Positions 3,582-45,090 of a DNA stretch of 53,276 bases are shown here, piece after piece (position 1 is the stretch's first letter; each line of letters opens with the position of its first letter). Made by a program: the position numbers and the translations under genes. A model generated the notes under the pieces. That model had not been told where the DNA came from and did not search any database. It saw only the letters and a program-made list of their open reading frames with translations. The stretch is taken from IMG/VR virus record IMGVR_UViG_3300034152_000987, positions 1 to 53,276 of that record; one strand, written 5' to 3'. The DNA comes from a virus (taxonomy: Duplodnaviria > Caudoviricetes).

Positions 3582-6155
3582 TTACCAAGAAGTGGCCACC
3601 GCGTGCCTTACCCACGTGTTGGTGTCTACGCACTCATACAAATACCCAGAGCCAAAATACTTCTGACCTTGAACTCCAGAAGAAGTCGGAGTTGGTTCAT
3701 AGTCAACGTATAAACCACTCATTGAGCCAGATATGGTTAAATTTCCTTCATCGTCTATGGAAGCGACTTCATTGTTGTAATAATCACAGAAAGATATTTT
3801 TCTGTGACCGTCATCAAGACCCATTCTCAGAATTGGGTGCTCCGCTTCAGCGGAAAATATGCTTTCCCTTCCTCTTGAACTTATGAACACCCTTCCGGTG
3901 GTACCAGATCCTAATTTTGTAAACATCCCAATGCGCTGAACGCTCCCAAAAGTGGGCTCCACCGTGGTCAAAGTGCCACTGCTGGTCACATAAACTCTGC
4001 TTCCCAAAGGAGATCCAGAAAACGAAGAAGTGTCCATAAACAATCTTCCAAAGCGCACCACGTATCCGTCGTCGCCGTTTGCTATGTTAGCTCTCACCAA
4101 GCCAATGCACGGCATCTTGTCACAATCCGTGTTGTCGCAAGCGGCCACTGATGGAACGGTTCCAACAAGACCGTTGACGTAAACAGGAGTCCCTCTCTCA
4201 AGAGTGGATCCAGTGTCGTTGCTGACCAACACAGCGTTGTACTTCGTGAACATTCCGTTTACGTCTTCAACGTTGTTGTCATTTAAATCCAAATCCCCAT
4301 TCACTGACAGCGCCCCGCCAAAATATGAATCTCCCGCGTTCACGTAAAAAGCCCAAGGATTGGTGATCGACATGTTGGCTCCAGCGGTTGGTGATCCATC
4401 AATGTAAACCGTGCAAGCGTCAGTTATTGTAATGGAATTGTCACCAATCATGGTGGGAATCCCGAACGAAGTGGCAGATCCTTTGTCTCTAAGACCGGGA
4501 GTGAAGTTGTCAGTTAAATTGGCCGCAGAAACGCGCAGTTGCAAACCTTCTTTTGTAATTGGAGAGTCATCCACGTTGCCCGCTATATTGACGTATTCCG
4601 CCGGCCTTGCTCCAGTTGTTATGAAGTACTGAGTGTGATCGTCAGCGTCAAGACCGGTGAGATCTGCGTGTGCCGAAGCTCCTGCAGCTCCGCTGACAGT
4701 TGTGTCAACGTAAGTCTTGACAGCCTTTTCTGTTGGTATGGCGGAATCGGAATTGTCTGTAAAAGCTCCGTCAGTGGAAAACTCATCTACGGAGTTGCTG
4801 TCTATTGTCAAATTGTTGGTTATGACGACGCTGCCTTCAAAATTCACGTCGTTTTCAACGTCAACGTCTGAATATGACGTGTAAATTTGCTTGTTCCAAG
4901 AAGTTCCGGTTATTTTGGAAAAAGTGGGAGTGGTTGCCAAAAACGAAAGGACTTCTCCTGGAGCCGTCACGTCAGACCAATTGTCTCCATAATCCTCTGA
5001 CACGCTGACTTCACCAGTGGCCGCGCAAGCGATTTGAATTTTTCCGTCGTAAGACAACTTCAAATCGTTCCACTGACGACTTTCGCCTTTCGCTGACCAA
5101 TTCTCGCCATAATCAGTGGAAACGTATATGTTGCCTCCCCACACCGCCGCAGCTTGAATGGAACCGTCGTCTGACATGCCAACCGGTTTCCAGTTTCTGT
5201 CGGAGTCTTTTGCTGACCAAGATTGTCCTCCGTCGCTTGAAACGTACAATTTACCTCCGAAGGCGCCAGCGGTGACGTAATCCCCGGAAGCTGACATCCA
5301 AATTCCATACCAAGCCTCAGACGGACCTGTGTGGTTCCAAGTTTGCCCGAAGTCATTGGAAACGTAAATGTGCCCCAAACCATTGAAAACAGCCATTCTT
5401 CTACCGCTTGAAGACATTGCCATCCCGTAAGGAACCCCAAGGACTGGACCGTAACCAACGAAAGTCTCTCCATGATCCACGGACACTTGCGTTTGACCGC
5501 CCACCACAGTCCCAGCAATGACCCTGCCGTCAGCCGACATCGCCAAAGAGTACCACTGCAACGCCGCAACCGTGAGAGTCGACCAAGTCTTTCCAGAGTC
5601 GGTCGATTTGTACAACACGGAATTGCTAACGCAAGCCACTTGAGTGACTCCGTCAGACGTCATGGCCACCCCGTTCCAGAACCTGGAGCTGTCTCTGGCA
5701 GTCCAAGAATTTCCAAAATTGGATCTTAGGGTGTAGTCGTCCTGTCTGCAAGTCATCCTGTTCACAATGACTTGTCCCCTGGAACTGCTGGCTATGACGG
5801 AATCTCCGACGTGCGCGCTTCCGCCAGAAGTGAACAACTCATCACAATAAATGTCACCGGTTCCAGAAATGGTTCCGGCTCCGTAATCTATGTTGTCATT
5901 GGCGTTTTTTGGAGTTAGGGTCGTGCCGGTTCTGTCCCAATAAGAAGAAAGGTCTGAGTGTGAATACCCAGAATCTTTTGGAAGGCCGTTTGAATCAAAC
6001 GAAACAAAGTTGTCTTCTGTCGCCCCAGCAACCCCGTAATGATCGACGACCCCGTCTATGTGGTGTTTTCTTGGGTGATCGTTCACTCCAGACGACGTCG
6101 CGGCTCCGACCATGTCCAGTTTTCTGGTAAACGGATTATAATCAAACGAAGGCAT
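3582..6155 (-). CDS. Virion/tail protein with Asp-box (BNR) beta-propeller
   Basis: 857 aa. About six Asp-box repeats S-x-D-x-G-x-T/S/N-W (STDSGKTW, SNDFGQTW, SSDGGQSW, STDYGENW, SEDYGDNW); shares WDRxGTxLTP and DDHxQY motifs with the adjacent 1180-aa protein. Confidence 0.7.
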   Translation of the reverse strand: MPSFDYNPFTRKLDMVGAATSSGVNDHPRKHHIDGVVDHYGVAGATEDNFVSFDSNGLPKDSGYSHSDLSSYWDRTGTTLTPKNANDNIDYGAGTISGTGDIYCDELFTSGGSAHVGDSVIASSSRGQVIVNRMTCRQDDYTLRSNFGNSWTARDSSRFWNGVAMTSDGVTQVACVSNSVLYKSTDSGKTWSTLTVAALQWYSLAMSADGRVIAGTVVGGQTQVSVDHGETFVGYGPVLGVPYGMAMSSSGRRMAVFNGLGHIYVSNDFGQTWNHTGPSEAWYGIWMSASGDYVTAGAFGGKLYVSSDGGQSWSAKDSDRNWKPVGMSDDGSIQAAAVWGGNIYVSTDYGENWSAKGESRQWNDLKLSYDGKIQIACAATGEVSVSEDYGDNWSDVTAPGEVLSFLATTPTFSKITGTSWNKQIYTSYSDVDVENDVNFEGSVVITNNLTIDSNSVDEFSTDGAFTDNSDSAIPTEKAVKTYVDTTVSGAAGASAHADLTGLDADDHTQYFITTGARPAEYVNIAGNVDDSPITKEGLQLRVSAANLTDNFTPGLRDKGSATSFGIPTMIGDNSITITDACTVYIDGSPTAGANMSITNPWAFYVNAGDSYFGGALSVNGDLDLNDNNVEDVNGMFTKYNAVLVSNDTGSTLERGTPVYVNGLVGTVPSVAACDNTDCDKMPCIGLVRANIANGDDGYVVRFGRLFMDTSSFSGSPLGSRVYVTSSGTLTTVEPTFGSVQRIGMFTKLGSGTTGRVFISSRGRESIFSAEAEHPILRMGLDDGHRKISFCDYYNNEVASIDDEGNLTISGSMSGLYVDYEPTPTSSGVQGQKYFGSGYLYECVDTNTWVRHAVATSW

Positions 6156-6974: not shown

Positions 6975-8363
6975 CTATATAAAGTTATATAAATAAGTTC
7001 TATGACCGGCGTCCCACACCCGATCATACCCTTGTCCGACCAGCGATTCAAACTCAATTTCATTCAATTCTCTCTCTTCTTTATTCTCATTCAAAAAAAA
7101 ATTCTTAATTCTTTTTCCGTTCTTAAAATAATGAGGAGCGCATTTGGTAAAACCAACAGGTTTAAAACCCAACAAATCACAATCAGTGGAGAAAAAGTTG
7201 TCGTATCTCATGTCACAATAAGATTTAACGCAACCGATCCCATGATTTTTGCAATGCTCTTTCGCCACCTCAAACAACTTTCTAGCCCCTCCAACCACGG
7301 TAAAATTTTTCTTTTCGCAAAATCTCTTCAACTCCAATTCATTGTTCAAATTGGAACGCTTTTTCACAGGGTTTGACAAACCCAAGGCGGCCACCAACTC
7401 ATCGTCGCTAAACAAACCCCAAACAACCACGAAATCAGATCCTCCTCTCACGTGATTTTCATTGAAAAAATCGTTGGCGGTCTTTGAATCAAGAGTTTTG
7501 ATGAAACAATTTCCAGCCAACGCCTCGTTGTCACTCAAACCCAAAGCGCGTTTTATTATAGAAACCACTATGTCAAATTTGTCACACGCTTCATCCTCAA
7601 AAACCGTGATCAAACGAACTCCCTTGTCCGCGCATTCTTTCATTTTGTCATAATGGTAAAATTTGTTTTTACCCGATGAAGCTTCCCCGTGCCAATACAA
7701 ACCGCACACTTCCACCGCCACCTTTAAATCATGAAAATAAACGTCCAATTCTTTTGGAGCTATGATTGAACGATCGTTGTAAATCACGTTCACGTTTCGC
7801 AAGTCCCTTTCTATGAAATCTCGCATTTTTCGTTCGGGCCGCGAAACGAAATCGTTGCCAAGGAAACATCTCAAACACCTGTTTCCGTTGTCTTTGAACC
7901 CATGATAAGTGACACAGTACTCATGACCTTTTGGGCACTCCAAGAGAACGCGACCGTTGTGGCAATTTTTAAACTCCTTGGCGGAAAGCGTTTTGTAACC
8001 AAACCTTTCAACGTGCTTTTTCATTTCCTTTATTTTATTGGCCCTGTTAAAAATTCTTTTCCTAGCCCTGTCCTTTTTCCTCGTTAAAGATCTTTTTCTT
8101 TCTGCGTTCTCAGAATTCAGCTTTCTTCTCTCTTTTTCACATTCTTCAGATCCGCAATGCGTTTTGTTTTTGTAATAAGTGCTGAACTCTCTCCCGCAAA
8201 CCAAACACTCTCTAACTCGTTTTCTAAAGTTGTTTCTTGCTCTGCTGCGATTCCTCTCGCGTTCCTTTGCAAGCAAATCCCCACAGGTTGAGCAGCGTTT
8301 TTGATTTCCAGACGTGGGGATGAAAACCAAGTTGCACCTCTCACACCTTTTCTTTTTAAGCAC
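6975..8363 (-). CDS. Free-standing Zn-finger / PD-(D/E)XK (Vsr/Hef-like) endonuclease with C-terminal GNAT-like region
   Basis: 462 aa, GTG start. Repeated CxxC ribbons, CPKGHEY, ELDVYFxxLKVAVEVCGLYWHG and GVRLITVFEDE nuclease motifs, ELKRFC...GGARKL...SYCD...WDAG C-terminus typical of phage Hef-like endonucleases. Confidence 0.7.
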   Translation of the reverse strand: MLKKKRCERCNLVFIPTSGNQKRCSTCGDLLAKERERNRSRARNNFRKRVRECLVCGREFSTYYKNKTHCGSEECEKERRKLNSENAERKRSLTRKKDRARKRIFNRANKIKEMKKHVERFGYKTLSAKEFKNCHNGRVLLECPKGHEYCVTYHGFKDNGNRCLRCFLGNDFVSRPERKMRDFIERDLRNVNVIYNDRSIIAPKELDVYFHDLKVAVEVCGLYWHGEASSGKNKFYHYDKMKECADKGVRLITVFEDEACDKFDIVVSIIKRALGLSDNEALAGNCFIKTLDSKTANDFFNENHVRGGSDFVVVWGLFSDDELVAALGLSNPVKKRSNLNNELELKRFCEKKNFTVVGGARKLFEVAKEHCKNHGIGCVKSYCDMRYDNFFSTDCDLLGFKPVGFTKCAPHYFKNGKRIKNFFLNENKEERELNEIEFESLVGQGYDRVWDAGHRTYLYNFI

Positions 8364-8428: not shown

Positions 8429-11400
8429 TTATAAGCTTCTATCAATAACGCCCATCCCGAGCATTCTTGAGTCAAGGCACGCAAATCCTATTTCTGCCCA
8501 TCCAAAGAAGCCTTGTTTTTGTTGACGAAGCAATGCTGGATCATCAATAGCTTCATATTCTTTTCTGATGGGCATTACAAGAGAATCATTTACGCTCATG
8601 TCAAAACCAAGTATCTGAGTTTCCCCCAACGAACTGACTGTTCCGTCAGCGGACGTTACGTTAGGATTGTCAAGAGTGTAGTTGTTGTAAACTTCGCCTG
8701 CGTCGGCTATGAACTTGCCAAAAGCAGCGGTGCTGGCATTGATGTTGTACATGCCGGTTGCTCCCAAATGTTGCACCTCATGAAGCTGCACGTTCCAAAT
8801 GGAACCCATTCCAGAAGCCTGAAAAATCTCTCTCCTGGTCACAGGATCAATGTCCGTGTCAGTCCACTCTCTAATGTCTGCAGCGTCTTCAGGAGCTATG
8901 TAAAGATCTGTCAAAGTCCTGCCAATTCTCTTGAAACCTACCAACATCTTATTTATAAGTTCCTTAGAAAGGTAACCAGCACCAGTTGACGCCGGATCAA
9001 TCTCATAAATAGGAGCTGGACGTGAACCCAACAGTCCCTTTCCAGAAAAAGCAGACGTCGCGGCCGGCATGATGATCTTCCAACCGCATTCTTCCTCATA
9101 ATTGGCAATGTCCTTTGCAACTCTAGCAGCAGCTCTTTGAGCAATGTCAATCCTCGAATCTCTAGCGTACGTCACTTTCCAATCTGCAGAAGCGTTAATA
9201 GCGAAGGTAGGAACATAGCATTCTGTTACTTGTAATGACCTCGGCTTTACCCGTTAGGCGGGGAAGCTCTTCGGCATTCCCTCTCACAGTTTCCTGTGAG
9301 TTCAGACTATATCATCATCCCAATGCAGGGAGTCTGGCGTATAGTCGTTGAGGAGTCTTAAAAAAGTTTCCTGCTGATTACCCAATCTTTGTTATTTTTA
9401 CCATGTCAGTAAACAAAGCTCTAAGGGCTTTCCAGCATATAGCAAGATTAAGAGGCCTATTTATTTTAGCTAACCTCTTCTCCTATACCTTCGATAAAGT
9501 TCTGGGCCATATCATCCTGTTACTTGTAATGACCTCGGCTTTACCCGTTAGGCGGGGAAGCTCTTCGGCGTTCCCTCTCACTGTCTCCAGTGAGTTCAGA
9601 CTATATCATCGCCTTATCGGCGTTTGACGTATAGTCGTTGGGGCTTACTTTATTTTAATCTCTTAGGAATATCCATAGTTATAACGTCTTTACTGCCATT
9701 CAAACTTCGTAAAGAAATTGCTATTTCAATGTCCCTATCGGTTACCGGAGTTCCTCTATTGACAGTCATTCTGTTATTGACATACTCTAACAATAGTTTA
9801 GCCTGCTTTTTCTTTGCAACCTCATTAGCCGCTAAAACAGGAAGTGCTTTATGAAGCCTCTTCATTCCCCCCAACGAAATTTTGTATTCAAGCTTTCCGT
9901 TTTTACGGGGTTTAGGACTTATATAAGCGCCTACTTTAAACCACTCTTTAATGACTCTATCGCAGTTTAATATAAATCCTTCACTGTCATTGGTTATTTC
10001 TATTGATGGAAAAAGATATAACGTCTTATTTTTATGATGATGTTGTTTAGACAACACATAACTTCCATCACTGTCAATGGCTCCGATCAACCATCCTAAG
10101 TCAAATAAAGTCTTGCCACCTGATTGTCCCATATTAGTCATATTTTCACCTTAGTAGTAATGACCACTTAGCGGGAGTTCCCAGCGTTATAGTCAAATTT
10201 TCAATACTACGTCTCTGTAGTATGGGCCATATGTTTATAGCCAAGCCCAGGTAGTACCCAAACTGGACAGTCTGTTACTTTTATGACCTAAAACGTCTTT
10301 TCTTTAGGCGGGTTGCTGCGAAGCAACCTCTGCACGTTTCCATGCAGCTCGGACTATATCTTCATTCAGTAAGAATGTTTGGCGTGTAGTCTCTGAGGAG
10401 TCTTAAAAAAGTTTCCTGCTGATTACCCAATCTTTGTTATTTTTACCATGTCAGTAAACAAAGCTCTAAGGGCTTTCCAGCATATAGCCAAATTATGAAG
10501 CTCTTAAAGAACCTCAAAATCTTCACTCACGGGGTAGACCGTTCAACCCAATGTGTTTCCACATTGGCCGGACTCTATCATCACGTTAAGCGTCTTGCGT
10601 ATTAGTCTCTGGGGTATCTTCATAGTTAGGGTTGTGATTTAAAAATTTTACTTTTTCAACTATATTATATATGTCTTTTGTATTAAATCTATTTATTTTT
10701 TTATGTTCCAAATAATCAATCATCAATTCCAGCTGGTTTTGTTTTGCAATAATTTTATTATTAATAAAACTCAGTAGTTTATACAAAGAATCCTGATTTC
10801 TTACATAAATGTTATAATTAAATTTCTTTTTGTTCTTACCTAATCTTTTTTTAGCTTTAGATTTATTGGTCCTATAATTATAATTTATATTAAGACTTTC
10901 ATATAAAGCTATAACATTATTAAGCATGGTGTCTGATCCAGTAGTTATGTCTACAGTGGGTATAACGCGTTCACTCTTTGTAACTACAAAACATATAGAA
11001 CCATCACCATCGATCGTACCGGCTAGCCAAGAAGGCGTGAAATTTCTATACCCGGTATCATAATTATAATCAAGATTCAGCTCTACTATTTTATTGTATA
11101 ACTCTTTTTGATAAGCAGTGTATGGTGTATTATTTTGTTTCCAACCAAGCTCATTAACATACCTCAATCTATCCTCACAAAACTTCCTTATTACTTCTAA
11201 TTGAGGTCTCCTAGAAATACAATATCCAACAACCAGATCAACAAACTCTATACATTTAGATAGACGTTTTATAGTTAGTTCCTTCTTATCTTTTCCAACA
11301 CTGGCTTTTCTCGTGGATATATGATGATTTATATTATTGTTATCTAAATAAGTATGGCATGCCTCAATTAAATCAAACCTAGTGTTATTAAAAGAAACAG

Positions 11401-11793
11401 TTGGTCTAAGTTGTAATCTCCCCCTAGGATAAAACCTGTGTATATACACACCAAAATCACTGTCAACTAAACCAGCAATATAGTTATCATTAACTATGAA
11501 GTTACCTGCATGATTGTCCATAACATCCTCCCCATTTTCACGTTGTCAGTAAGGGACGGCTTTAGGAGTTTCCAGCATATAGCAAGATTTTAACAGGCCA
11601 TTTACCCCACCATAGCCTGCGCTCCCGGCGCCAAATTCTCCACCGCGAACAATTCCCTCATGATTGATTCCAGTTCAATTTTCTGCAGGATTGGAGTAGT
11701 GAGCGCAGCGGCAAAAGCTCTGTAAGCCGCCATGCCTTCAGGAGTGTGCTCAGCTGTTGCTCTGAACAGTTGTCTCATTTCACGTTCGTCCAT
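8429..11793 (-). CDS. Major capsid protein, 355 aa after splicing; exons 11793-11614, 10539-10511, 10267-10239, 9512-9473, 9218-8429
   Basis: Joining the exons at U|...G| group I junctions gives one open frame of 1068 nt: ...LAPGAQA|VYPVSEDFEV|PVWVLPGLGY|MAQNFIEGIGEEV|YVPTFAINASADWKVTYARDSRIDIAQRAA... Position after portal, protease, scaffold and decoration genes, plus its size, fit an HK97-fold capsid protein. Confidence 0.85.
9219..9472 (-). mobile_element. Group I intron 4 of capsid gene (254 nt, no ORF)
   Basis: P1 AAGAGGU| pairs with GCCUCUU; same core motifs as introns 2 and 3; ends ...GUAACAGAAUG; removal joins GT+C into Val, in frame with the 8429-9175 ORF. Confidence 0.9.
9513..10238 (-). 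mobile_element. Group I intron 3 of capsid gene (726 nt) with LAGLIDADG ORF
   Basis: P1 GGCU|AU pairs with AUGGCC; core ACGCUGGGAAC, CAACGACUAUA, GAUAUAGUCU; ends ...GUAACAGGAUG; removal joins T+AT into a Tyr codon in frame. Confidence 0.9.
9650..10141 (-). CDS. Intron-encoded single-motif LAGLIDADG homing endonuclease
   Basis: 163 aa with LGWLIGAIDSDGSY motif and KKKQAKLLLEY helix; lies inside intron 3. Confidence 0.85.
   Translation of the reverse strand: MTNMGQSGGKTLFDLGWLIGAIDSDGSYVLSKQHHHKNKTLYLFPSIEITNDSEGFILNCDRVIKEWFKVGAYISPKPRKNGKLEYKISLGGMKRLHKALPVLAANEVAKKKQAKLLLEYVNNRMTVNRGTPVTDRDIEIAISLRSLNGSKDVITMDIPKRLK
10268..10510 (-). mobile_element. Group I intron 2 of capsid gene (243 nt, no ORF)
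   Basis: P1 hairpin UGAGGU|UCU-UUA-AGAGCUUCA with U-G at the splice site; UAUGCUGGAAAG, AAUCAGCAGG, UCAGAGACUACA and GAUAUAGUCC core elements; terminal G; removal restores the frame. Confidence 0.9.
10540..11613 (-). mobile_element. Group I intron 1 of capsid gene (1074 nt) with LAGLIDADG ORF
   Basis: P1: exon CAGGCU pairs with intron GGCCUG with a U-G at the splice site; P10 GGGGUA pairs with exon 2 UACCCC; core motifs AUGCUGGAAAC, CAGAGACUA, GAUAGAGUCC; ends in G. Confidence 0.9.
10586..11521 (-). CDS. Intron-encoded double-motif LAGLIDADG homing endonuclease
   Basis: 311 aa. Motifs YIAGLVDSDFGV and WLAGTIDGDGSI; AT- and TA-rich; start and stop overlap intron core sequences. Confidence 0.88.
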   Translation of the reverse strand: MDNHAGNFIVNDNYIAGLVDSDFGVYIHRFYPRGRLQLRPTVSFNNTRFDLIEACHTYLDNNNINHHISTRKASVGKDKKELTIKRLSKCIEFVDLVVGYCISRRPQLEVIRKFCEDRLRYVNELGWKQNNTPYTAYQKELYNKIVELNLDYNYDTGYRNFTPSWLAGTIDGDGSICFVVTKSERVIPTVDITTGSDTMLNNVIALYESLNINYNYRTNKSKAKKRLGKNKKKFNYNIYVRNQDSLYKLLSFINNKIIAKQNQLELMIDYLEHKKINRFNTKDIYNIVEKVKFLNHNPNYEDTPETNTQDA

Positions 11794-17741: not shown

Positions 17742-20696
17742 TCATTTCTTTTTGGTCAAAACAGCTTCTGAACAAACCCTGGCGGCGTCGCCTCCTTTTG
17801 CAAATCCCGCGTCAACGCGCTCCCAGGAAGCTCCAGATCTATGCTCTTTCATCAATCCTCCAGAACTGTACATAGTCAATCCTTCCTCCACTTGAGAATC
17901 CTTTTCTATGGCCCTTATTCCATAACCAACCAATATCATTGCTGAATACAAGTCTTTGTTCTGTCCTTTTTTAGGAGTGTCGAAATGCAAAACACCGCTT
18001 GCTTTTTGAGTGACCACTATGTTCAACATCTGTGACTTTAAAACGTTTATGGCTTCAAAAACCCCCGCTTCCACGTCAGACGCAGAAGTTGGAGGCTCTG
18101 GAAACCGCAATTTTTTGTCCTCCAACAAAGACAAAGTGGCGTAGTTCGCGTCGGAAATCCACGATGGAGAAAAATTAACCATCTCCAAAATGTGACGACC
18201 TTCCATTTTTTTGTGATTGTCGTTAGTTATGTCTATGATGGGAACTTCGTCATTGTAACCTTCTTCAAGCAAATCGCAGACGGCTTTGCCTCCACCGCCT
18301 TTGTCCATGTATATTCTTGTTGCGTTGAACTGATCCGACAAACTTTGCACTGCTTTTGCAAGCTCTGGAGTGGTGTTTGTTTTTAGCTCTATTGCGCTAA
18401 CCACTTTATTGGTTTTTCCCAATTTTACAACCACGACTCCACAACTTGCAGATCCTCCCTGATTCGGATCAACCCCCATAATGTAATTCTCACCAGGCTC
18501 CGCTCCCAACTCCACGGAAAATTCGCTTCCGAAAGTGCAAGCCTCCAACAAGGAAGCTTTAAAAAATCCTTCTGAATCAGATATCATGGTGGCTTCGTAT
18601 TCCATTTGGAACCCAGCCTTGGACATGACCCTTTTTGCTTCCATGACGCTGTTCAAATCCAAAAACCCTTCTGGCAAAAACCAATATGGAATTTGATGCA
18701 CCGCGTACTGTGAATTTGAACCGTGTTTTTCCACTTGCTTCCAATAATCTTTCATTCTTTTCCACATGTGATTGAACTTGTAATAACCTGAAGAAGTCAT
18801 TATCATTTTATTCACAGTGCTTTCTTCGAAGTCCTCTTCTGTGGCCAATCCCATTTCTATTAATTTCTTTTGTCTTTGAAGACGTCTGACGTTTTTCATC
18901 GGTTCCAATATTGTGGCGGCCATGGGCCTGATGACCGTGTCCAAAACCGTTGGGTTGACTTGCGCCAACTCGTCAATGCATATTAAATAATAACGAGATC
19001 CTCTAATTTTGGAACCGTCGGCCAGTGGAAGTCCTTCTATGTAAGATCCTGAAAAATCTCCAGAAGATTTAAACGGAAGATAAACGGAGTCAGATCCCCT
19101 CGTTGGTTTTTTCGCAGTGGCCTCTTTCAGTATGGGAGATTTGTCCCATAATTTTTCAACTTCCATAAATATGTTTTTAGAATTATGGTTTATAAATCCA
19201 TTAGCCCAATAACATTCCTCATTTTCTACCTCCATATCCATGGTTGGAGCGAAAAAATAATTAGATTTTACCATTTTTACAAAATACAAACCCTGGTCCA
19301 AATAATCTTTACACTTAAAATAATTGCGCTCCACAATCTCCTGTGGAAGCCCTATAGAGCGAGCCAAACTCTCTTCTTTATCAAAATGACAACATAAATA
19401 ATTTTTCAAGTCAGCGTTTTTTCTCCTGCACCTAAACCCCACTACACCATTGAATTTTTTAATAAACGTTTGTCCGGTTATTCTAATCTTATAACTTTCC
19501 GCGCATTTAGACGGTTTGTTGCCCTGTGGTAATTGTTTAACGCGTTTTTTATTGCCAATCCCTAAATTAGACACAATGCCTAAATTCAATAATACAGATT
19601 GAACTTCCTTAGCTAACTGTAATGATGAGGCGTTGAATGTTATTTCACACGCTTTATTTTTTTGTACATAAACACAACCATCAGTATCAAACAAACCCTG
19701 TAAAAAAGCAATCACATTCTCCTTAGACGCCTTTTTAATAACGTCAGGGATTTTCTTATCCAACGCTATGGTTTTTGTAAACCCACACTTTAACAGGTAC
19801 ATACATAATTTTTTATTGCTAAACTGTAATTCTTTTGTATTATTTCTTCTCTGACACTCTTTTGTTTCTATGCCAAAATATTCTTTTGTATACCTATGAA
19901 AACTGTCTAATAAATCTCTATCTTCATTAACAAAATCTAATCTTGGTTTCTTATCCTTTTTTCTAAACGTAACACAACCATCACCAACCAACAAACCCAT
20001 CCAATAAGCTAAATCTTCAGTTAATAGTTTTGGAACTAAACAATCTTTAGTTCTCCAATCGTGCTCAAACTCATCAAAACTTGGCATGGAATCATTGTTG
20101 CCAAAATAATTAAATCCAGTTTTTATTGCTATGTAATCGTCTTTTACGTCTTGAAGGTCTTTATATACAATATCTGCGTCATCGTCAAGCACTATAATGG
20201 CGTGATCTACAGTGCCAGCCAATTCAAAACCTTTTGTTGTTTTTATTCTTCTACAAGCTCTGTCATCATTCTTCCATTTACTTAGTATTGTATTCTGAGA
20301 CTTAAAAGACTGCGTTTGCGTAATGTTGGGAACAACGCTTTCATACATGTCTTCTGCGCCAACAACCATCCCTGAGGTGGTCCAGAATGTATCATAATTA
20401 TTTGATATAATTAGGCTTTGTCTAAAGACAGGGCCAATTAAACCCACCCTATAACCAGGATACAGCAAACAGCTCAAACAAGCCAACACTCCCAGCATCC
20501 ACGTCTTTCCGCCGCCCCTGCCCATTACGGTGATCGTGTAATTCTTGAACCACATGTCCCTAAACACTATTTTCTGGACTGGAGCGAAATCAACCCCCAA
20601 CAACTCGCTGGCTGCTATGCAAGGGTGTTCTCTGTAAAACTGTATTAAATCAACCCCCCTGTCCAGTATTTTTTCAAGTTGATCGTCGTGCATCAA
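17742..20696 (-). CDS. terL: Terminase large subunit containing an intein (572 aa after splicing)
   Basis: Walker A GRGGGKT, KIRGSR, Walker B LICIDE, motif III MTSSG, RNase H-like YIMGVDP, YMDKGGGG and KDLYSA. Confidence 0.9.
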   Translation of the reverse strand: MMHDDQLEKILDRGVDLIQFYREHPCIAASELLGVDFAPVQKIVFRDMWFKNYTITVMGRGGGKTWMLGVLACLSCLLYPGYRVGLIGPVFRQSLIISNNYDTFWTTSGMVVGAEDMYESVVPNITQTQSFKSQNTILSKWKNDDRACRRIKTTKGFELAGTVDHAIIVLDDDADIVYKDLQDVKDDYIAIKTGFNYFGNNDSMPSFDEFEHDWRTKDCLVPKLLTEDLAYWMGLLVGDGCVTFRKKDKKPRLDFVNEDRDLLDSFHRYTKEYFGIETKECQRRNNTKELQFSNKKLCMYLLKCGFTKTIALDKKIPDVIKKASKENVIAFLQGLFDTDGCVYVQKNKACEITFNASSLQLAKEVQSVLLNLGIVSNLGIGNKKRVKQLPQGNKPSKCAESYKIRITGQTFIKKFNGVVGFRCRRKNADLKNYLCCHFDKEESLARSIGLPQEIVERNYFKCKDYLDQGLYFVKMVKSNYFFAPTMDMEVENEECYWANGFINHNSKNIFMEVEKLWDKSPILKEATAKKPTRGSDSVYLPFKSSGDFSGSYIEGLPLADGSKIRGSRYYLICIDELAQVNPTVLDTVIRPMAATILEPMKNVRRLQRQKKLIEMGLATEEDFEESTVNKMIMTSSGYYKFNHMWKRMKDYWKQVEKHGSNSQYAVHQIPYWFLPEGFLDLNSVMEAKRVMSKAGFQMEYEATMISDSEGFFKASLLEACTFGSEFSVELGAEPGENYIMGVDPNQGGSASCGVVVVKLGKTNKVVSAIELKTNTTPELAKAVQSLSDQFNATRIYMDKGGGGKAVCDLLEEGYNDEVPIIDITNDNHKKMEGRHILEMVNFSPSWISDANYATLSLLEDKKLRFPEPPTSASDVEAGVFEAINVLKSQMLNIVVTQKASGVLHFDTPKKGQNKDLYSAMILVGYGIRAIEKDSQVEEGLTMYSSGGLMKEHRSGASWERVDAGFAKGGDAARVCSEAVLTKKK
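19182..20417 (-). mobile_element. LAGLIDADG intein in terminase (412 aa, Ser1...His-Asn / Ser+1)
   Basis: Exteins rejoin as VFRQ|SKNIF; block B GTVDH, endonuclease motifs MGLLVGDG and LQGLFDTDG, terminal YWANGFINHN; TA-rich relative to the flanks. Confidence 0.9.
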
Positions 20697-21229
20697 TTGT
20701 CTTCTTCCTCGTCTTTTGTCGTTTCTGCGTCATATTTGTTCCCGTCATACTCCGACAACATTTCTGACATTTCTTCTTCCGCTTTTCCATCCAGTTTATT
20801 GAACTTTTCCATCAACTCTTTCTTTCTGGTGTCATCAAACGCGACCGCCAAATCAACGATTGAAAAACCTTTGTACTTGTTTGGATCTATTCTGTCTCTT
20901 CTTCTCACTGACAAACTGCCCTTGATTTTCTCAGTTTGTTTCCTTAGCTTGTCTATCGCCGTTGTGGCTTCAAGCTGATTGTTGTAGTTGTCTTTGCTGT
21001 TCTTCAACAATCTCAATTCAAGTATCTTGTTGGTCGCAAGAGTCATTATGTCATCCATGTCTCCGGAAGTAAGCTCCTCATCTTCAAAATCATTCACGTA
21101 AATGTCAACCAAATTGTTGTACAACGTCTCTTCCTCTTCACTGAAAATGTCTTTTATAGGAACGAATTCCTTTAACATTTCTTTAATTTTTGGCGGATTT
21201 TTTGGCCGGCCGGGCCCCCTCTTAGCCAT
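20693..21229 (-). CDS. Probable terminase small subunit
   Basis: 178 aa, overlaps the terL start, N-terminal AT-hook-like KRGPGRPK, helical; assigned by synteny. Confidence 0.5.
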   Translation of the reverse strand: MAKRGPGRPKNPPKIKEMLKEFVPIKDIFSEEEETLYNNLVDIYVNDFEDEELTSGDMDDIMTLATNKILELRLLKNSKDNYNNQLEATTAIDKLRKQTEKIKGSLSVRRRDRIDPNKYKGFSIVDLAVAFDDTRKKELMEKFNKLDGKAEEEMSEMLSEYDGNKYDAETTKDEEEDN

Positions 21230-21651
21230 CAGTAATTTAGATCCTCCAATATCAATTCCATGTCGATTCCATACTTGTCAACGACGTCTTTTATAATAAT
21301 CAACACTTCCGGAGTTAAACCGTGCCCAAATTTGTCTATGTCATAACCGCAACATATTTCCAAACCGTTGTGGGTCTTCAGTCTTCTTTCAGTGACTATG
21401 TCTTTGAAATCGTCTATGTTGTCTTTTCTGTCCATTATCCAAGAGCATAAATCATCGTCATCGGTTCTGCAATACCTGTCTATCAATTCATTGCTTATGG
21501 AATTGAGCTCTCTAAAATAAAAAAGCAATGACTTGGAAATTTTGTCTTTGGTTGCCTGACTGTGACATTGGCCAGTTCTGGATTTGCTGATGGCGAGCTT
21601 GCTTTCCTCACTCAGCTTGAATCCAATCGGCCTACCCACTCTTCCTCTCAT
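21229..21651 (-). CDS. NUMOD3-motif DNA-binding protein
   Basis: KLSEESKLAISKSRTG.HSQATKDKISKS NUMOD3-like repeats; no nuclease motif seen. Confidence 0.55.
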   Translation of the reverse strand: MRGRVGRPIGFKLSEESKLAISKSRTGQCHSQATKDKISKSLLFYFRELNSISNELIDRYCRTDDDDLCSWIMDRKDNIDDFKDIVTERRLKTHNGLEICCGYDIDKFGHGLTPEVLIIIKDVVDKYGIDMELILEDLNY

Positions 21652-44670: not shown

Positions 44671-44819
44671 ATTAAACTGAACTTGGAGAGCGACGGGCGT
44701 AGAACTTTAGGCCCGTCCCTCTCTCAAGCCCTCTTCATCGTTTTGGAAAAGAACGCGTTCTTTTTCAAACGATGAAGAGGGCTTGAGAGGGGACTCCAAT
44801 CCCCTCCTAGGAAAGGGGG

Positions 44820-45090
44820 TGGTTAAGTGCCTTCCTCTAACTCATTAGACCCTAAGTGGTTATTTGGGCTGGTTTTAATGGGTCTGCCAGCATTGCAACC
44901 GTGAGCGGACAGCCCAGCCGCAAGTTTGCCGAACTCGTCGCGAGGCGGGGGCGGAAAGCCAGGGGTCCGCTTGCACTGACTGGGACGGCGTGAGTTTGCG
45001 CCAGCGCGTGAATTTACGCCAGCGAGATACCCTGATGCCACCGCATTTAGTTCATGGCAAACAAACCGCAATGGACCGCTGGCAAAAAAC
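44820..45090 (+). ncRNA. Candidate ~270-nt multi-branched ncRNA
   Basis: GC-rich gap with no plus-strand ORF and nested long-range helices (see findings). Confidence 0.5.

Follow-up and report, generated by a model that had tools for sequence, protein, structure and literature searches.

How could a phage make its major capsid protein when the gene for it is broken into five pieces, three of which measure 29-40 nucleotides (nt)? The question is raised by a 53,276-nt linear virus record in IMG/VR (IMGVR_UViG_3300034152_000987; Duplodnaviria; Caudoviricetes), which represents an uncultured large phage and is referred to here, over its whole length, as the window. The gene occupies positions 8429-11793 on the minus strand, where four inserts separate five exons. 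According to our analysis, it is very probable that the inserts are four paralogous group I introns to be removed in four splicing events, that LAGLIDADG enzymes drive their spread, that introns 2 and 4 hitch-hike with their neighbours, and that intron 4 is a product of recombination. The parts of the gene, from its 5' to its 3' end, are as follows (CDS, coding sequence; ORF, open reading frame).

11614..11793, minus strand: exon 1, 180 nt, residues 1-60, with the ATG at 11793
10540..11613, minus strand: intron 1, 1074 nt, CDS site 180, predicted group I intron with a homing-endonuclease gene
10511..10539, minus strand: micro-exon 1, 29 nt
10268..10510, minus strand: intron 2, 243 nt, CDS site 209, predicted group I intron without an ORF
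10239..10267, minus strand: micro-exon 2, 29 nt
9513..10238, minus strand: intron 3, 726 nt, CDS site 238, predicted group I intron with a homing-endonuclease gene
9473..9512, minus strand: micro-exon 3, 40 nt
9219..9472, minus strand: intron 4, 254 nt, CDS site 278, predicted ORF-less mosaic group I intron
8429..9218, minus strand: exon 5, 790 nt including the stop codon, residues 93-355

The ORF listing of this interval consists of four separate entries on the minus strand, with lengths of 63 amino acids (aa; 11793-11602), 311 aa (11521-10586), 163 aa (10141-9650) and 248 aa (9175-8429). Joined to each other, the five exons form 1068 nt, which correspond to 355 codons and a stop, and no internal stop is found. 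The insertion sites, at CDS positions 180, 209, 238 and 278, span 98 nt; every upstream exon terminates in U and every insert in G. An earlier note on this DNA had predicted both the 355-codon frame on removal of the inserts and the crowding of all four sites into 98 nt of coding sequence. Its coordinates proved to be exact, and the peptide that it named is found within the spliced product.

A homologue search with the product of exon 5 returned 622 proteins at an E-value (E) of ≤0.001, and the best 120 of these 622 were examined. The alignment set comprised 96 of the 120 (354-361 aa), and the other 24 (248-351 aa) were dropped as truncated or themselves split. Across residues 61-93, the part encoded by the micro-exons, the spliced protein aligns with all 96 uninterrupted homologues without a single gap, so that we consider the junctions to be correct to the nucleotide. 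The alignment to intron-less homologues suggested in the earlier note thus found the micro-exon segment present throughout. Mean identity is 90.7% in this part (minimum 85%), compared with 80.2% and 84.8% in exons 1 and 5, respectively, and the residues from micro-exon 2 reach a mean of 99.7% over the 96 homologues. For one homologue, P0003, identity is 82% between exon 1 and residues 1-62 and 90% between exon 5 and residues 92-355. A second copy of the capsid gene was not detected in the 53-kb record, where a full-length homologue query matched exon 1 and exon 5 only.

That the interrupted gene is the major capsid gene, as the earlier note had assumed, had to be settled by fold, because Pfam returned no family for either capsid ORF and PHROGs gave only a marginal match to "major head protein" (E 5e-4). 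The fold was tested on P0003 with a 51-sequence alignment from a representative search (308 relatives, E≤0.001). The AlphaFold2 model of P0003 has a predicted local distance difference test score (pLDDT) of 89.5 and a predicted template-modelling score (pTM) of 0.87. Its top Foldseek matches in the PDB are HK97-fold phage capsids and encapsulins, including those of HK97 and T5, with a probability of 1.0 and target-normalised template-modelling scores of 0.5-0.6. The gene context is that of a head module: portal, large terminase and prohead protease genes neighbour the capsid gene and share its strand, and upstream of it lies an acidic ORF of 251 aa, which we guess to be the scaffold. The modelled fold of the homologue and this context support an HK97-fold major capsid protein as the gene product, and in this respect the earlier note was borne out.

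In the model of P0003, residues 50-107 form short strands between the N-terminal helices and a long helix (residues 116-147). The intron region would therefore encode those strands of the HK97-fold protein that follow the N-terminal arm and precede the spine helix. Judging from the usual order of elements in this fold, the intron sites (residues 60-93) may be placed in or beside the E-loop. A tblastn search against 50,697 phage records produced three matches only, all annotated as major head proteins: two records of Bacillus phage G (23% identity, E 3e-9) and Tunturiibacter phage Tunturi_5. The similarity is distant, and the lineage therefore appears to be without a cultured close relative in that collection. 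Megablast of 8429-11793 gave no match in the same collection.

According to their predicted structures, all four inserts are group I introns of one family. The only matches of the Rfam covariance model RF00028 (gathering threshold 50 bits) in the window are the four inserts. Intron 2 covers the full model with 88.7 bits (E 2e-21) and intron 4 scores 74.7 bits, and for these two the core helices are supported by the structural alignment to the model. The covariance-model check suggested in the earlier note thus succeeded in so far as every insert matches, with introns 2 and 4 above the threshold, whereas introns 3 and 1 stay below it. The 5' core of intron 1 furthermore resembles intron 4 (E 4e-8). 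In line with the earlier description of intron-shaped segments with a P1 U-G splice site and a terminal G, a P1 helix with U·G at the splice site can be drawn for introns 1, 2, 3 and 4, with 7, 6, 4 and 7 base pairs (bp), respectively, plus three intron-side pairs in intron 3. P7 is kept in all four introns, and the first in-frame stop ends 12, 7, 32 and 7 nt into introns 1 to 4. Inteins, frameshifting and group II introns were rejected on account of these early in-frame stops and the match to the group I model.

The micro-exons appear to serve two introns each, as the earlier note had suspected. In every one of them the 5' end is the predicted P10 partner of the upstream intron and the 3' end the P1 partner of the downstream intron. 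For example, the first 10 nt of micro-exon 1 pair with the guide of intron 1, while the last 6 nt are part of P1 in intron 2. The P10 pairing comprises 9 of 10 positions for intron 1, 5 bp for intron 3 and 4 bp for intron 4. The predicted P10 pairing takes up the first 2-10 nt of a micro-exon and P1 the last 4-7 nt, which leaves the two segments apart in exons of 29-40 nt.

Further evidence comes from relatives of the gene, for which we used the best 80 of 297 confirmed viral-contig loci and the best 80 of 369 metagenome-contig loci, both ranked by similarity to exon 5 and hence not a random sample. Introns were located by eight peptide anchors per locus, and each was placed at the site where its removal restores the frame and the U/G rule is obeyed. 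After removal of exact duplicates and of loci falling short of residue 31, there remained 106 distinct genes. Intron 3 shares 72-76% identity over its full length with the site-238 introns of five relatives. Among three introns at this site, RNAalifold predicted 81 pairs, 18 of which are changed on both sides. The compensatory changes fall in P1, P2, P3, P5, P7 and P8, with the P3 and P7 pairings spanning the ORF, and the P1 pairing survives a C-G to U-A change in relatives. Four introns at site 180 show a similar picture: P3 reads UCUUGC/GCAAGA, UUUCGC/GCGAAA or CUUUGC/GCAAAG, compensation extends to P6, P8 and P9, and P7 is invariant.

Introns 1 and 3 each contain an ORF:

10586..11521, minus strand: intron 1 ORF, 311 aa, predicted two-motif LAGLIDADG homing endonuclease (Pfam)
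9650..10141, minus strand: intron 3 ORF, 163 aa, putative LAGLIDADG endonuclease

Both ORFs start within the P5-P6 region and extend through part of the core. The product of the intron 1 ORF matches PF05204 (Hom_end) with 39.5 bits (cut-off 21.1) and PF14528 (LAGLIDADG_3) with 26.7 bits (cut-off 22.5). The intron 3 ORF reaches 15 bits with PF14528, which is under the same cut-off, and it matches PHROG 5046 (E 4e-7). As it aligns with both halves of the intron 1 ORF (BLASTP, E 4e-7 and 4e-4), it most likely encodes a single-motif LAGLIDADG enzyme.

In the relatives, introns between residues 31 and 112 are distributed as follows:

No intron: 94 of 106 genes
One intron: 8 of 106 genes
Two introns: 3 of 106 genes (L026, L030 and L137)
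Three introns: 1 of 106 genes (L117, with sites 180, 209 and 238)

Four introns are present in the window only and in none of the 106 distinct relatives. The carriers of the individual sites are listed here:

CDS site 171: L041, L051 and L137
CDS site 180: L026, L117, L153 and the window
CDS site 195: L026
CDS site 209: L117, L137 and the window
CDS site 238: L015, L030, L100, L117, L120 and the window
CDS site 278: L030, L038, L080 and the window

Six insertion sites are thus used within 108 nt, and the introns at all six are recognisably one family. Their occurrence singly or in combination in 12 of the 106 relatives, next to 94 that lack them, is the pattern of mobile introns. The shortest exon seen in the capsid family is a 15-nt micro-exon of five codons between the introns at 180 and 195 (L026, positions 4990-5004). 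The site-238 intron of L117 (4233-4959) ends in A instead of G, so that this copy would be defective unless the A is a sequencing error.

The ORF-less site-209 intron occurs in three genes (the window, L117 and L137), always 29-38 nt downstream of an endonuclease-bearing intron at 171 or 180. Introns at these two sites are found in 4 of the other 104 genes (one-sided Fisher test, p ~2e-4, ignoring relatedness). This suggests, with a small number of cases from related genomes, that the ORF-less intron hitch-hikes with its endonuclease-bearing neighbour. Conservation of the target was considered as a sufficient cause of the clustering and rejected, as the hot spot is above average in conservation and not at the maximum: among 90 intron-free relatives and the window, the majority-base fraction is 0.845-0.873 at CDS 196-285, against 0.82 for the gene.

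Intron 4 is composed differently from its counterparts in other genomes. The site-278 introns of relatives are 1146-1150 nt long with a 325-aa ORF, whereas intron 4 measures 254 nt and is ORF-less. Its nt 24-135 are identical to intron 2 at 107 of 112 positions, compared with 78-80% identity to the same-site introns of relatives, and its nt 136-254 agree with the 3' end of intron 3 at 104 of 115 positions. Two exact blocks emerged from the sequence comparison:

10394..10488, minus strand: 95-nt exact block of intron 2, identical to 9349-9443 in intron 4
9517..9569, minus strand: 53-nt exact block at the 3' end of intron 3, identical to 9223-9275 in intron 4

The longest exact match among 165 between-genome pairs of introns from different sites is 31 nt, and other within-genome intron pairs share exact matches of 9-21 nt. 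The 5' end of intron 4 including the guide sequence is its own and fits site 278. In P3, a U-C mismatch sits exactly where the intron-2-like and the site-278-like sequence join. We read intron 4 as the product of recombination between introns inside the gene, with an assembly effect being possible. An origin as an assembly phantom of introns 2 and 3 was rejected, since the first 29 nt, with the guide that fits site 278, and nt 125-197 are its own, and it is also countered by the homology of both halves to the site-278 introns of relatives. Recombination between introns of one gene as a habit of the whole family was likewise rejected: the within-genome pairs of L026, L030, L117 and L137 share exact matches of 10-16 nt only, and the mosaic of 95- and 53-nt exact blocks is specific to the window.

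From these observations we posit the following course of events. The late transcript would carry all four introns. At each of them, P1 would arise by pairing of the last 4-7 nt of the upstream exon with the internal guide, and free guanosine would attack at the U·G wobble that marks the cleavage site. The first nucleotides of the next exon would then pair with the guide as P10, and the terminal G of the intron would serve exon ligation. Stop codons 7-32 nt inside the introns may prevent ribosomes from entering the ribozyme cores. The outcome of four independent splicing events would be a 1068-nt mRNA and the 355-aa capsid protein. The exons join to one frame only without all four introns, which supports the view of the earlier note that the capsid protein could be made only after four splicing events; splicing itself is read here from the sequence.

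As to the spread of the introns, alleles that lack them are presumably cleaved in co-infected cells by the LAGLIDADG enzymes encoded in introns 1 and 3, and repair of the cut would copy the introns into these alleles. Introns 2 and 4 probably travel in the same repair tracts, because they are ORF-less and lie 29-40 nt from mobile neighbours. Intron 4 may have lost the endonuclease gene that is borne by its site-278 relatives and may have been partly overwritten by introns 2 and 3 via recombination within the gene.

The shared blocks also create a setting for exon skipping, in which intron 4 has the exact 95-nt core block in common with intron 2 and the 53-nt block in common with intron 3. Loss of micro-exons 2 and 3 would delete 69 nt and keep the frame. 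A hybrid ribozyme could link the 5' site of intron 2 to the 3' site of intron 4 because of the identical 95-nt core. It is conceivable, though unlikely, that the four introns are not independent parasites but one co-mobilised array exchanging segments, and that such a hybrid of introns 2 and 4 gives rise to an in-frame message shortened by these 69 nt and to a second capsid isoform lacking 23 residues of the loop region.

We consider it quite unlikely that the four tandem introns act as a regulatory array that orders or delays splicing and in this way times or throttles capsid production, an idea that the earlier note had put forward. The double role of each micro-exon, whose 5' end provides P10 for one flanking intron and whose 3' end provides P1 for the other, would suit such a device, and cases in which the exon between similar neighbouring introns is skipped have been documented in Twort orf142 and also in a Bastillevirinae phage gene (PMC11878797; PMC10136302). 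However, the sequence lends no support to ordered splicing or capsid timing: P10 and P1 segments overlap in none of the micro-exons, so that no order is forced. Moreover, 94 of the 106 relatives make the capsid protein without an intron in this region and the others carry various subsets, and selfish mobile elements therefore fit better than a conserved regulatory device.

Several points weigh against the reading of four spliced, mobile group I introns that we favour. The record is a metagenome assembly with an estimated completeness of 19%, and therefore the presence of all four introns on a single molecule, with no other intact capsid gene in the rest of the genome, is presumed. Splicing is inferred from the sequence. 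Intron 3 scores 34.3 bits with RF00028 and intron 1 scores 24.8 bits on its 3' core (E 0.0016 in a 2.9-kb search, 0.03 over the whole window), both under the threshold because ORFs of 936 nt (intron 1) and 492 nt (intron 3) interrupt the model. The idea of co-conversion draws on three co-occurrences in related genomes, and three other stretches of the gene match or exceed the conservation of the hot spot. P10 of intron 2 consists of just 2 bp, and P3 of intron 4 contains the one U-C mismatch.

The last two features could also be taken to mean that at least one intron, most likely intron 4, self-splices poorly, the gene being either defective or helped, for example by LAGLIDADG maturases. The loss of the ORF from intron 4 would agree with such decay, and the site-238 intron of L117 with its terminal A illustrates that defective copies occur in the family. 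This explanation is nevertheless very unlikely in our view, since introns 2 and 4 are the best Rfam matches of all, U·G, terminal G, P7 and early stops are kept in all four introns, and the exons are undamaged, with 80-91% identity to intact homologues. Highly improbable, finally, is a chimeric assembly in which two strains with fewer introns (e.g., 180+209+238 and 238+278) were merged via a shared intron 3 and no real four-intron genome exists: relatives with such subsets are known (L117 with 180+209+238, L030 with 238+278) and the region contains the exact 95- and 53-nt repeats, but the micro-exons of 29-40 nt would link adjacent introns within single short reads, the assembled path alone keeps every micro-exon once and in frame, the 95-nt block of introns 2 and 4 is best explained by a shared genome, and three contigs each are known for the ORF across the exon 1/intron 1 junction and for the intron 3 ORF, although these contigs are perhaps not independent assemblies.

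With four mobile group I introns as the preferred reading, the gene can be compared with known systems. The introns of orf142 in Staphylococcus phage Twort were reportedly described by Landthaler and Shub in 1999. The gene codes for a tail tube protein (PMC11878797) and contains three introns, two of which are highly similar and surround a skippable 23-nt exon (PMC10136302; PMC11878797). Like the capsid gene of the window, it thus combines several group I introns in one structural gene with a very short exon between similar introns. Unlike the window, with four introns in a capsid gene known from DNA alone, Twort has three introns in a tail gene, and skipping was shown by experiment.

With respect to the protein, a counterpart is the capsid gene of the crAss-like Zeta group (cMAG OLRF01000054). 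Yutin et al. (2021; PMC7886860) describe it as being in five fragments separated by four spacers, three of which contain group I intron domains. Both cases concern the major capsid gene of an uncultured metagenomic phage divided into five fragments, but the crAss-like phage belongs to another order, its capsid sequence is unrelated, and its introns were recognised by protein domains. In the window, the sites lie within 98 nt and two introns are ORF-less, whereas clustering and micro-exons are not part of the crAss-like description in the accessible text of that paper. In mycobacteriophage LittleE, the major capsid gene carries an intron whose splicing was demonstrated by reverse-transcription PCR and N-terminal sequencing (Pope et al., 2013; PMC3706429), and the introduction of that paper cites a capsid-gene intron of lactococcal phage Tuc2009. 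As in the window, LittleE presents an intron in the gene for the major capsid subunit, an exon ending in U and an intron ending in G, a LAGLIDADG-like ORF and absence from close relatives; LittleE differs in having a single intron, an ORF on the opposite strand and proven splicing. The nearest relatives of all, L117, L026, L030 and L137, have the same capsid protein (81-89% identity in exon 5), intron family and hot spot and share sites with the window, but four introns and a mosaic intron 4 are found in the window only.

The earlier note had held that group I introns of phages are mostly reported in DNA-metabolism genes, usually one to a few per gene. This claim of rarity was overstated, given the published capsid-gene introns (LittleE, PMC3706429; the five-fragment crAss-like gene, PMC7886860) and the 23-nt exon of Twort orf142 (PMC10136302). 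A phage capsid gene of comparable intron density was not found in the literature, with the supplements of the cited papers lying outside the search. The gene of the window is an extreme case of gene interruption already known in phages and does not point to a new type of element or mechanism. Its main interest lies in the six-site hot spot, in ORF-less introns beside endonuclease-bearing ones and in the mosaic intron 4. The capsid family offers a natural series on intron pile-up, with alleles carrying 0-4 introns, six sites in 108 nt and a 15-nt exon. It represents a system for asking by what route ORF-less introns spread next to neighbours with endonuclease genes, and how near-identical neighbouring cores avoid or exploit mis-pairing and exon skipping. 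There is also a consequence for annotation: gene callers yield a 63-aa ORF, a 248-aa ORF and two "endonuclease" genes and miss three exons, and because they split it, this marker gene of a widespread uncultured large-phage lineage is mis-annotated wherever the introns occur.

Further candidates for mobile elements were seen around the capsid gene. The large terminase ORF (17742-20696, minus strand, 984 aa) contains an in-frame insert with LAGLIDADG domains (PF14528, 82.8 bits) and a match to an intein splicing domain of 35.4 bits, just under the cut-off of 35.8; the insert is probably an intein. Together, the capsid introns and this probable intein suggest that two genes of the head module have been invaded by mobile elements. 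Directly downstream of the capsid gene lies a free-standing homing-endonuclease-like gene of 462 aa (6975-8363, minus strand), which matches PHROG 559 (E 2e-57) and PHROG 3339 (E 1e-54) and no Pfam family. It seems to come and go, since, of 102 fetched loci (duplicates included) that extend 1500 nt or more past the capsid gene on its downstream side, 20 possess a homologue. Close to the terminase gene, on its upstream side, a 140-aa ORF (21229-21651, minus strand) weakly matches a PHROG of homing endonucleases (phrog_314, E 4e-4). Elsewhere in the window, a long hairpin at 44710-44804 gave sub-threshold matches to microRNA-precursor models on both strands (~32-34 bits), and beside it, at 44919-45043, there is a weak match to the c-di-GMP-I-GGC (cyclic di-GMP) riboswitch, with 25.8 bits against a threshold of 59.

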